Assembly: GCA_965198235.1 (NCBI GenBank) | Contig: OZ240248.1 | Coordinates: forward strand, 3,392,001-3,456,000 | Origin: Candidatus Poribacteria bacterium | GTDB taxonomy: Bacteria > Poribacteria > WGA-4E > WGA-3G | Direction of reading: 5' to 3' | DNA: 64,000 nt | Shown here: positions 47,452 to 50,802 of the stretch, piece after piece | Position numbering within the stretch: position 1 is the first letter of the stretch | Layout: every line of letters starts with the position of its first letter | The notes under the pieces: model-generated | The model's input: the letters and a program-made list of their open reading frames with translations, nothing else | Told to the model about the DNA's origin: nothing | Database searches by the model: none | Translations under genes and position numbers: made by a program

Positions 47452-48813
47452 ATGATAAAAAAAATACTGATAGCAAATCGCGGTGAAATCGCTGTCCGCA
47501 TCATCCGTGCCTGCAAAGATATGGGAATTAAAACGGTAGCGATCTATTCAACCGCTGATGAAGATGCACTACACGTTAAATACGCTGACGATGCCTATTG
47601 TATTGGTCCACCGCCTTCAACTGAGAGTTATCTCAAATACTCCAATATTATCACTGTTGCGGATTATGCGAATGTCAACGCAATCCATCCCGGAGCGGGT
47701 TTCCTTGCTGAGGACGCGCAATTTGCGGAAATTTGTGAGGCACATCAGATAAAGTTTATCGGACCCTCCGTCGCAAATATCGCCACGATGGGTGACAAAG
47801 TGAAGGCACGCGAAACTGTGGCAAAAGCGGGACTGAAACTCGTACCCGGCAGTCAGAGCGGTAGACGTAAAAATAGCAAAAAAGGAACAGTTGACACCGC
47901 CGAGGATGCCGCGCAGCTCGCTGAGAAAATCGGGTATCCTATCGGGATCAAAGCCGTGGCAGGTGGTGGCGGTCGCGGCATCCGAATCGCCGAAAATCAG
48001 CCGAGCCTACTTAATCTTTTTCACACTGCGAAGGCAGAGGGTGAGGCGGCTTTTGGTAATGGGGATGTCTACATTGAAAAATGGATTGAAGAAGCACGAC
48101 ATATTGAAGTCCAAATTCTTGGAGATACCCACGGCAACGTTGTTCATTTGGGGGAACGCGAGTGCTCTATCCAGCGGAAACAACAGAAACTCTTGGAAGA
48201 AGCACCTGCCGCCTCGATTCCATCTAAACTTCGCAACGAGATCTGTAAAGCCGCCGCAAAAGCCGCAAAAGCGATCGGCTACATAAATGCTGGGACCATT
48301 GAATTTGTAGTGGATAAAGATGAGAATTTCTATTTCTTAGAAATGAATACACGGATTCAAGTTGAGCATACTGTCACTGAGAGTATAACCGGCATTGATC
48401 TCATCAAAGAACAGATTCGACTCGCCATGGGGGATCAACTCGGATATAACCAATCTGATATTCAGATTCAAGGACATGCGATTGAATGCAGAATTAATGC
48501 CGAAGATCCAGCAAATCAGTTCATGCCTTCACCAGGGCTCGTCACAGTCTACCATCCTCCCGGCGGCATCGGTATTCGGATTGATGGGTATCTCTACACG
48601 GGGTATACTGTCCCCTCGCACTACGATTCACTCGTGGCGAAACTCATCGCGACTGGCAGGGATCGGGAAGAGGCGATTGCACGGTTGAAACGCGCATTGT
48701 CTGAATTCGAAATTGAAGGTATTAAGACCACGATTCCGCTCTTCCAGAATATCCTCAACGATGAACGCTTTCGCAACGGAACCATTTTTACCAATTTCTT
48801 AGAAACGTCATAG
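47452..48813 (+). CDS. accC: Biotin carboxylase
   Basis: ILIANRGEIA, GGGGRG, ERECSIQR, EMNTRIQVEH, ECRINAED. Confidence 0.97.
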   Translation: MIKKILIANRGEIAVRIIRACKDMGIKTVAIYSTADEDALHVKYADDAYCIGPPPSTESYLKYSNIITVADYANVNAIHPGAGFLAEDAQFAEICEAHQIKFIGPSVANIATMGDKVKARETVAKAGLKLVPGSQSGRRKNSKKGTVDTAEDAAQLAEKIGYPIGIKAVAGGGGRGIRIAENQPSLLNLFHTAKAEGEAAFGNGDVYIEKWIEEARHIEVQILGDTHGNVVHLGERECSIQRKQQKLLEEAPAASIPSKLRNEICKAAAKAAKAIGYINAGTIEFVVDKDENFYFLEMNTRIQVEHTVTESITGIDLIKEQIRLAMGDQLGYNQSDIQIQGHAIECRINAEDPANQFMPSPGLVTVYHPPGGIGIRIDGYLYTGYTVPSHYDSLVAKLIATGRDREEAIARLKRALSEFEIEGIKTTIPLFQNILNDERFRNGTIFTNFLETS

Positions 48814-49052
48814 TACCCAAACCCCAAAGGGTTGGGCTCGTGCTTCATCGCAGTCTGCCTTCCGAAGAAGGTCTTACGTCTGCTCCACAACGGGATACTA
48901 AGCAGCCCGCGCTCATAGAGAGCCTTACTATTTTTTCAGAGCGCGTTTTGTCGGATCGGGTGTTTTACTTCCTCGCATCCATTACACGCAAAGCACCCCT
49001 TCTGGACCCTACACTACACAGGTATTCTAACATTTTTGACACTTTTTGTTAA
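48807..49052 (-). ncRNA. Orphan TnpB omegaRNA/IS200-IS605 right-end-like locus with its own promoter
   Basis: TGTGGAG..GTAAGACC..GGC..CGATGAAGCACGAG-hairpin-TACTATGAC; cUUCGg tetraloop; promoter TTAACA-N17-TAGAAT. Confidence 0.65.
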
Positions 49053-50802
49053 GAAAAAGGAGGGCGGTCTACTGAAGGTTTCCGAAGGTTTCCGAAAGTT
49101 TCCGAAGGTTTCCGAAAGCCAATATCACGTGCATTCCATCATTATAACACTTGTAATCTTTATCCTAACGTCCACGGCTATAGAGGCAGTTACCTTTACT
49201 GATGTCACAAGGGAAGCCGGCATCCGTTTTCAGCATTCAAGCGGAACCCGTTCCAGCCTACTCCCAGAAGACATGGGTTCCGGGGCAGGCTTTGCCGATA
49301 TAGACAACGACGGAGACATCGACCTCTATATTGTTAATATCCCCGGTCCCTTTACACAAGATGGAAATATTGTCCCGCAAGCCTCTATAGGCTTGCGAAA
49401 GGGAAACGCCAATGTCCTCTATCGTAACAACGGGGATGGTACATTTACGGACATCACGCGTGCCGCAGGTGTTGGGCATCAAGGATACGGCATGGGGTGC
49501 GTCTTCGCAGATTATGACGGTGATGCCGACCTCGACCTTTATCTAACCAACTATGGTGAGAATGTTCTCTATCGTAACAACGGGAACGCCACCTTTACCA
49601 ATGTCACAGAAGTTGCCGGTGTCGATTGCGAATTGTGGAGCACAGGTGCCGCCTTCGCAGATGTAGACGGCGACACCGATTTGGACCTCTACGTTTGCAA
49701 CTATGTCACCTACGATTTAGAACAATTGGAACAGATGAAGGAAGAGTCCCTACAATCTGGAAAACCCGTGCCGAGTGCCCTGAATCCGCATGTCTTTGAA
49801 CCACAAGATAACGTCTTCTATCGTAACAACGGGGATGGCACTTTTACCGATGCAACCGATGAAACGGGAATCGCGGCAGTAGGGGGTAGAAGCATGCAAG
49901 CCCTCTTTAGCGACTTTGATAACGATAACGATCTGGATCTCTATGTCGCAAATGATACCTCCACGAACCATATCTATCGCAACGATGGCGGTGGAAGATT
50001 TACTGATGTCAGCACTGAGTCGTGGGCGGCAGATTTTCGCGGTTCTATGGGGCTCACCGCTGGCGATTACGACGCTGATGGTGATATCGATCTCTTTATG
50101 AGCCACTGGGTGGACGAAGAAAACGCCCTCTATAGAAATTTGCTTGAAGAGGATGGCGCAACTGAACAGATCAGGTTCGTAGATGAATCCTATACTGCCA
50201 TGCTTGCTGAAGAGAGCATCAAACAGATCGGATGGGGCACGACCCTCTTTGACTATGACAACGATGGTGATTTGGATATCTTTGTGACGAACGGCAGCAC
50301 CTTCCAGGAGCTTAGACGACCAGAGGTGCTTATCCCCCAGGCTGATATGTTGTTCCGAAACAATGGAGATGAGACATTCACCGATGTTAGTGAAAGTGCT
50401 GGAATTGCAGCACTCCCTATCCGAGTCGGTCGCGGTGCGACATTCGGGGACTATGACAACGATGGTGATGTCGATATTTTCATTGTCAATAACCATGCCC
50501 CACCGACATTGTTGCGTAATGAGGGCGGAAACCGCAGCAATTGGCTGCAGGTCAAACTCGTTGGAACGGACGCGAATCGAGATGCCATCGGCGCGAAAAT
50601 TCAAGTAAAAACGGCAGATCAGACGCAGATACGAGAAATTTACGCAGGTGATAGTTACATGTCTTTTAACAGTCTCATCGCAGAATTTGGCGTAGGGAAC
50701 GCCACACAGATTGAGACGCTACAGGTTACTTGGCAGAACGGCGAAACGCAGAAGCTTCATAATGTCCCAGCAAACCAGCGAATCCGTATAACGCGAGAAT
50801 AG
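49036..50802 (+). CDS. CRTAC1/ASPIC-UnbV family FG-GAP repeat protein
   Basis: Repeated DxDxDGDxDL and LYRNNGDGTFTDV; C-terminal NRDAIGA..FGVG; start uncertain (49036, 49072 or 49129). Confidence 0.9.
   Translation: MTLFVKKKEGGLLKVSEGFRKFPKVSESQYHVHSIIITLVIFILTSTAIEAVTFTDVTREAGIRFQHSSGTRSSLLPEDMGSGAGFADIDNDGDIDLYIVNIPGPFTQDGNIVPQASIGLRKGNANVLYRNNGDGTFTDITRAAGVGHQGYGMGCVFADYDGDADLDLYLTNYGENVLYRNNGNATFTNVTEVAGVDCELWSTGAAFADVDGDTDLDLYVCNYVTYDLEQLEQMKEESLQSGKPVPSALNPHVFEPQDNVFYRNNGDGTFTDATDETGIAAVGGRSMQALFSDFDNDNDLDLYVANDTSTNHIYRNDGGGRFTDVSTESWAADFRGSMGLTAGDYDADGDIDLFMSHWVDEENALYRNLLEEDGATEQIRFVDESYTAMLAEESIKQIGWGTTLFDYDNDGDLDIFVTNGSTFQELRRPEVLIPQADMLFRNNGDETFTDVSESAGIAALPIRVGRGATFGDYDNDGDVDIFIVNNHAPPTLLRNEGGNRSNWLQVKLVGTDANRDAIGAKIQVKTADQTQIREIYAGDSYMSFNSLIAEFGVGNATQIETLQVTWQNGETQKLHNVPANQRIRITRE
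49074..49118. repeat. 10-bp tandem repeat (GAARGTTTCC-type, 4.5 copies)
   Basis: gaaggtttcc gaaggtttcc gaaagtttcc gaaggtttcc gaaag. Confidence 0.9.

Follow-up and report, generated by a model that had tools for sequence, protein, structure and literature searches.

What is the 261-nt non-coding sequence that provides the very end of the biotin carboxylase gene accC in a Candidatus Poribacteria genome? The sequence lies on the minus strand, at positions 49067-48807, in a 64 000-nt stretch of contig OZ240248.1 (hereafter, the window), between accC and an FG-GAP/ASPIC-UnbV gene that starts at ~49135 and is divergently placed relative to accC (Pfam). The original prediction, made from the letters of the window, described this locus as a protein-free relative of the regions that encode the omegaRNA, the guide RNA of TnpB, and offered two readings: a non-autonomous element that kept only the RNA and its promoter, or an autonomously transcribed guide cassette serving a trans-acting TnpB or a nuclease-dead TnpB regulator. 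The evidence presented here favors the first of these readings, with a probability of about 0.85: the locus appears to be a protein-less deletion derivative of an insertion sequence (IS) of the IS200/IS605 family (tnpB-only, IS1341-type), and would accordingly be classed as a palindrome-associated transposable element (PATE) with the left-end promoter, the complete omegaRNA scaffold and the right end still in place.

Relatives of the element adjoin tnpB genes

The connection between the element and tnpB is apparent from the position of its homologs. A BLASTN search of the genome with the segment 49080-48780 yields ten places at E <= 0.001, four of which directly follow a match to the TnpB zinc-ribbon (PF07282); apart from the self match and one alignment that runs 4 nt further, all these matches stop at query position 274, which corresponds to window 48807. 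The covariance model R1 finds 29 places in the same genome, 15 of them linked to tnpB and 14 unlinked, and the 15 linked matches end 89-160 nt past PF07282 (TNB domain) on the same strand; altogether, the genome contains 35 PF07282 matches and 6 Y1 transposase matches. The same arrangement is seen outside this genome, in 41 loci with relatives of the nearest linked TnpB that were taken from public genomes (39 titled Poribacteria and two ‘uncultured bacterium'): R1 matches directly after tnpB in 40 of these loci, and the contig of the 41st stops 2 nt past the gene. The existence of tnpB-associated homologs of the scaffold had been set beforehand as a test of the original prediction, and the prediction passes it both within the genome and in the related loci.

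In the aligned RuvC columns, 22 of the 25 full-length TnpBs encoded in the genome have the residues D, E and D, among them the three TnpBs whose scaffolds are the most similar; we take these residues, from the literature on ISDra2, to be the catalytic ones. The nearest linked TnpB (400 amino acids; G000:C1:2163465-2164667) contains the OrfB_IS605 and TNB domains and matches the solved TnpB chains (8exa, 8h1j) at E = 1.2e-40. Three full-length TnpB open reading frames (ORFs; G000:C1:159893-161134, 4380243-4381475 and 4791539-4792771) have G for E in the second RuvC column and YHRDGVGA in place of DRDxNAA, and the latter two adjoin Y1 tnpA genes; these ORFs may belong to a subfamily that has diverged, or the alignment may be shifted here.

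Insertion at the 3' end of accC

In nine of nine related genomes, the orthologous end of accC is empty and reads T[C/T]AT followed, at the insertion point, by GT[T/C]TC[T/C]AAGAAATT. Accordingly, this is a canonical, species-specific insertion, located 3' of a short target motif, without target duplication and with a clean empty site in the relatives. The motif at the empty site is TCAT in six relatives, CTAT in two and TTAT in one, and the hexamer that opens the flank is GTTTCT in five, GTTTCC in two and GTCTCT in two, near-identical although not identical to the flank at the guide position of the window copy. On the coding strand, accC ends with GAA ACA followed by TGA, TAG or TAA in the relatives, compared with GAA ACG TCA TAG in the window, the element having split the last accC sense codon after its second base. 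The third base of the Thr codon (48807), a Ser codon (48808-48810) and the stop codon TAG (48811-48813) all come from the right end, through which accC gains one residue (from ET-stop to ETS-stop), so that the overlap of the element with the last codon and stop codon of accC is as originally described. The Biotin_carb_C domain match extends to residue 451 of the 453 in the accC product.

The pattern recurs at a second copy, denoted S401. In the four relatives printed, of the five that matched, the empty S401 site reads [C/G]CAT followed by G[A/T]T(T)GCTTGACTCC (flank GTTTGC in two, GATTGC in one and GTTGC in one), and the filled site in this genome consists of TCAT, an element that starts with C and ends with GAC, and then GTTTGCTTGACTCC. 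Across 12 copies, the left end is preceded by TCAT in nine cases and by TAAT, TTAT and CTAT in one case each, which suggests T[C/T/A]AT as the common target-adjacent motif (TAM).

The protein-less family

The complete copies comprise S401, S632 and S2520 in this genome together with seven in relatives, and share the same order of parts: TCAT, a left end that has C as its first base and a nested imperfect hairpin inside, a T-run, a promoter, a leader and a scaffold that ends ...TGAC. When 12 copies are aligned, conservation is seen over the last ~100 nt, and the 3' block TGTGGAGCAGACGTAAGACCTTC...CCCAACCCTTTGGGGTTTGGGTACTATGAC, present in the window copy, is kept in all 12. All 12 copies end with GAC or CAC at the position equivalent to window 48807, where the 3' block of the scaffold closes with ...GGGTACTATGAC, and are unrelated beyond this point; the 11 long-form copies likewise share the 3' boundary and then diverge. 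Different 3' flanks and a common TAM had been named as checks on the copies in the original prediction, and both are indeed found, the TAM in front of the left ends.

The element was also said to lack tnpA and tnpB, in agreement with the results of a tblastn search in which translations of the 35 TnpB ORFs have no match within the 700 nt upstream of the six unlinked copies in this genome. Similarity to TnpB is absent as well throughout eight loci of ~3.6 kb from relatives, ~2.5 kb of each being located upstream of the scaffold. A decayed tnpB pseudogene upstream, which was considered as a candidate, is rejected on the strength of these blank searches and of the lack of room between the flanking genes.

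The left-end hairpin of the siblings, which was drawn by eye from one sequence, consists of 14 pairs, with 77.6% paired compared with 64.5% in shuffles and with compensatory change in eight pairs; covariation thus appears to lend it moderate support. RNAalifold did not recover this hairpin from the sibling left ends, and the left end of S401 (L002:1296-1375), folded as DNA, is no better than shuffles. Strong R1 matches (E <= 1e-30) are found in 17 of the 41 genomes of the genus that were searched, including this one (G000), with 0 to 5 per genome, a patchy distribution that fits a mobile element.

Ten more unlinked R1 matches (22-70 bits) have no tnpB nearby, including those at G000:C1:1300585-1300748 and 1962845-1963026, those at G000:C1 positions 1410012, 3783875 and 858014, and five weaker places; these probably represent solo right ends or protein-less copies in a more advanced state of decay. 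The S401 copy has a neighborhood of its own. On its downstream side, it directly adjoins the -35 box of a promoter, TTGACT-N17-TATAAT (L002:1687-1930; G000:C1 ~401238-401480), and the S401 guide position therefore covers that -35 box; the promoter precedes an ORF that, as named by eye from its translation, resembles a PduO-type cob(I)alamin adenosyltransferase. Just past the -10 box near S401, there is a second insertion of ~240 nt with the 9-nt direct repeat TATATAATA on both sides. The four relatives printed do not have this insertion, a part of which matches elsewhere in genome G024 at 86%.

Structure of the scaffold

The scaffold alignment spans 185 nt and includes 11 protein-less copies, four from this genome and seven from three related genomes. 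The consensus structure consists of 50 pairs in eight helices, with 97.3% of the cells paired compared with 88.2% in shuffles, a value reached in none of 500 shuffles. Nineteen of the 50 pairs change on both sides, compared with 7.7 in shuffles, none of 500 reaching 19, and with 2-5 in controls with slid partners. The co-variation of hairpin arms is also visible in the 12-copy alignment, for example, CCCAACCC/GGGTTTGGG versus CCCCACGC/GCGTGTGGG. The fold of the single sequence is no better than that of shuffles (z = -1.32 for the minus strand and -1.30 for the plus strand). The stems GGGTG/CACCC and GCGCTC/GAGCGC, which were named in the original prediction, can form in the window copy but are not the pairings that covariation supports across the family.

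The scaffold of the window copy scores 187.8 bits with R1, compared with 182.8-197.7 bits for the three full siblings, and so is as intact as these. Its 5' half (helices 1-3) matches the position of the 3' part of the tnpB coding region in the linked copies. No family of Rfam 15 matches the scaffold at gathering scores, and the E-value mode gives only two chance-level snoRNA matches (E = 4.7 and E = 9), although Rfam may have no model for omegaRNAs of this type.

The promoter

The sequence strings quoted in the original prediction are all found on the minus strand where it had placed them, and so is the promoter, TTAACA-N17-TAGAAT with TG, at 49052-49024, with 10 of the 12 hexamer positions matching. 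On its own, this promoter is not significant, one promoter-like site being found in 48600-49300 compared with 0.7 expected in shuffles. The same promoter is, however, kept at the same place in 10 of the 11 aligned protein-less copies, the exception being S632, with a different spacing. In the complete copies, it has the form TTGA[C/A]A-N17-TA[G/A/C]AAT, so that the -35 box of the window copy (TTAACA) has drifted from the TTGACA or TTGAAA of the family. A homologous left end and promoter are found upstream of tnpB in the tnpB-bearing copies, and hence the promoter is an inherited feature of the IS; in the protein-less form, it is predicted to drive the RNA directly, instead of preceding tnpB. 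The leader of the siblings is ~100 nt long, comes in two variants and exceeds that of the window copy by ~85-100 nt. A scan of window 48600-49300 for terminators found none.

Origin and fate of the window copy

The history of the locus starts with a canonical insertion 3' of T[C/T]AT overlapping the accC stop codon, after which the right end supplied the last codon and the stop of accC; the TAM, the left-end hairpin and ~85 nt of the leader were lost later. A copy without the left-end hairpin presumably could no longer be excised by TnpA. The promoter, firing at ~49017, would produce an RNA made up of ~25 nt of leader, the scaffold of 185 nt and a guide from the accC flank, with antisense transcription into the 3' end of accC as a likely by-product. 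TnpB of a cognate IS copy elsewhere in the genome might bind this RNA in trans, and the complex would then recognize T[C/T]AT followed by GTTTCTAAGAAATTGG, which is the uninterrupted accC allele; this would correspond to the homing and retention role demonstrated by experiment for TnpB of the IS605 family. Transcription in the omegaRNA sense, TnpB binding and TAM-guided cleavage are thus functions predicted for the window RNA by computational analysis. There are precedents for such a role: as described in PMC10055086, IS605-family TnpB with its omegaRNA cuts the rejoined empty donor site, restoring the transposon, and PATEs often encode omegaRNAs that need the TnpB of other IS elements in trans; according to a part of PMC3119063, PATEs derive from IS605-type elements through deletion of the core.

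The guide, with a length of 16 nt that is assumed by analogy with characterized TnpB systems, has a sole exact match in the genome, namely, its own flank, where the DNA on the 5' side is the right end (TATGAC) rather than a TAM. Among the 12 off-site near-matches (<= 2 mismatches), none is preceded by T[C/T/A]AT. Given that the genome has no such target and that the copy cannot excise, the RNA is most likely a stranded guide without a resident target. A target in trans was also sought for the guides of all four long-form copies of the genome and is rejected, their exact 16-nt matches being their own flanks only. Each of the other three guides has a single off-site near-match; the one for S401 (C1:144581) directly follows the four nucleotides GAAT, but TGAT occurs within the 8-nt flank printed, at an offset of 3-4 nt.

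The window copy can be matched to the family only from CCGCCCTCCTTTTTC (49067-49053) onward, immediately ahead of the -35 box, and the sequence beyond it on the upstream side is similar to ancestral intergenic DNA of an element-free relative. Several observations of this kind weigh against the proposed identity of the locus. The TAM and the entire left-end hairpin are missing along with ~85 nt of the leader, so that, of the two palindromes that define PATEs, the window copy has the right-end hairpin but not the left-end one and, with the TAM also lost, is a PATE by descent only; it is probably immobile, and the deletion in the leader could affect RNA processing. Helix 1 of the window copy contains a non-pairing position and a wobble, one each, neither of which is seen in the other copies. 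Helices 1-3 can be aligned only weakly to the tnpB coding region of the linked copies (R1 scores of ~105 compared with ~190 bits), and therefore an origin of this half by simple internal deletion is plausible but not proven. Finally, contigs from RNA libraries (four metatranscriptome runs from one study, sponge metagenome) match the window exactly over 48652-48980, 48549-48980 and 48745-48980 and therefore bridge 48807, in four of four runs, but these contigs are unstranded, may represent read-through from the accC 3' end or DNA, and are perhaps not independent of the source of the assembly. In two of the four runs, the bins immediately ahead of the promoter are not covered, and the depth of one bridging contig is 114 compared with 24-28 for its neighbors (X1), although neither contig depth nor missing cover can show a start, a strand or a level.

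Alternative explanations

Three other interpretations of the locus can be weighed against its identification as a PATE derivative with a stranded guide. Under the first, the copy is immobile, its promoter works, its scaffold is intact and the resident TnpB is permanently programmed against T[C/T]AT followed by GTTTCTAAGAAATTGG, which would amount to an early stage of domestication. This appears unlikely but, if true, the guide would serve for allele exclusion or as a drive, through the cutting of insertion-free DNA that enters a recombining symbiont population, and its antisense read-through would also tune the expression of accC.

The second interpretation, which is to be considered very unlikely, is that the promoter no longer fires and the locus is a silent fossil, decaying transposon DNA that serves as the 3' end and 3' untranslated region of accC. 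The drift of the -35 box, the deletion of the left end and leader, the chance-level promoter count and the inability of the RNA contigs to show strand are all compatible with such silencing, but the TGn of an extended -10 box remains along with most hexamer positions, the scaffold has not decayed relative to those of the siblings, and the species-specific insertion is young, hence there was little time for silencing mutations to accumulate.

The third interpretation, likewise very unlikely, is a domesticated, fixed guide-RNA gene, that is, a selected cassette that programs TnpB or a nuclease-dead TnpB and that would regulate accC or another locus or else eliminate recombinants with an uninterrupted accC: the scaffold as intact as those of the mobile siblings, the promoter kept although the adjoining left-end hairpin is deleted, and the RNA contigs that bridge the junction would be expected of such a gene, but the insertion is found in none of the nine relatives, so that no conservation argues for selection, neither the match at the guide's own locus nor any of the off-site near-matches has a TAM, no tnpB-like gene is detectable nearby and, in the three closest cognates, as in most TnpBs of the genome, the D-E-D residues are kept. 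The dead-TnpB regulator of the original prediction has no support either, whereas its non-autonomous element is retained in the identification of the locus as a PATE derivative.

Comparison with known systems

The family resembles the PATEs in the lack of any protein gene, in ends that are related to those of tnpB-bearing IS copies of the same genome, in the insertion 3' of a short motif without target duplication and in the probable origin by core deletion. In both, moreover, the encoded omegaRNA would have to rely on other elements for TnpB as well as for TnpA. Unlike PATEs, the window copy has neither the left-end palindrome nor the TAM, and the family as a whole differs in the conserved sigma-70-type promoter at the left end, placed to drive the omegaRNA directly, and in the compact, non-coding 5' half of the scaffold (helices 1-3) with covariation of its own. 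Descriptions of a lost left end, of a promoter driving the omegaRNA or of a non-coding 5' half were not found in the portions of PMC10055086 and PMC3119063 at hand, although promoter-driven PATEs may already appear in their supplements or extended data; the accessible part of 10.1101/2023.11.20.567912 contains nothing on stand-alone omegaRNAs. The kind of element is, in any case, already in print, as omegaRNA-encoding PATEs, and no new kind of system is revealed.

The omegaRNA of ISDra2 TnpB (Deinococcus radiodurans; 8exa, 8h1j) is likewise a structured RNA from the 3' end of tnpB, with a limit exactly at the right-end boundary and a guide taken from the flanking DNA; its TAM, too, is short, T-rich and located 5' of the left end. 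In ISDra2, the TAM is TTGAT, compared with T[C/T/A]AT in this family; furthermore, in contrast to the ISDra2 RNA, the RNA of the window copy stands alone under its own promoter, does not overlap a tnpB reading frame and has a scaffold that matches no Rfam family.

The guides of TldR, the TnpB-like nuclease-dead repressors, share with the window copy a TnpB-type scaffold and a fixed guide that no longer resides in a mobile element. Such guides lie next to a tldR gene and are directed at a conserved promoter that has a TAM (described in part in PMC10705468). The window locus differs from these on all counts, with no adjacent dead tnpB-like gene, nor indeed any adjacent gene of this kind, no TAM-flanked target and no orthologous conservation across species.

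The surrounding locus

The coordinates of the element and its neighbors are given in Table 1. The intergenic region that separates accC from the FG-GAP gene (window 49068-49134; orthologous L028-L036) consists of hypervariable, species-specific short tandem repeats, with 4.3 copies of GAAGGTTTCC in this genome and heptamers TGCTGAC or TGGCTGA or other units in the relatives. The possibility that the 10-nt repeat at 49074-49116 is a rearranged left end is rejected: the element-free relative shares the start of this stretch, and other short repeats occupy the same spacer in the relatives. Elsewhere in the window, two tRNA genes on the minus strand (2473-2547 and 2613-2686) are the sole Rfam matches at gathering scores.

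Table 1. Features of the element and of the adjacent DNA (window coordinates)
Feature	Position	Strand	Basis or remark
Left-end remnant CCGCCCTCCTTTTTC	49053..49067	-	Match to complete siblings begins here
Sigma-70-type promoter, TTAACA, 17-nt spacer, TGn-TAGAAT	49024..49052	-	Sequence scan and family alignment
Short leader, predicted start to scaffold	48992..49017	-	Start at ~49017 predicted from the -10 box
omegaRNA-type scaffold, 185 nt, eight helices, ending ...TATGAC at the right-end boundary	48807..48991	-	Covariance model R1, covariation
Guide position GTTTCTAAGAAATTGG, flanking DNA antisense to the last accC codons	48791..48806	-	Complete divergence of copies from here
accC, biotin carboxylase, 453 amino acids	47452..48813	+	Pfam
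10-nt tandem repeat, 4.3 copies	49074..49116		Probably outside the element, in a hypervariable intergenic stretch

Implications

The window copy and its siblings provide a natural example of the RNA half of a TnpB system that lives apart from the protein, with a promoter of its own and a structure kept by compensatory changes across species. This separation supports the view, already published, of omegaRNAs and TnpB as modular parts that work in trans. The 185-nt scaffold, the T[C/T/A]AT motif and the intact-looking cognate TnpBs, taken together, make a candidate two-part editor. For the annotation of this genome, identification of the element explains the odd 3' end of accC, with its added residue and borrowed stop codon, as well as repeats that have remained unannotated.

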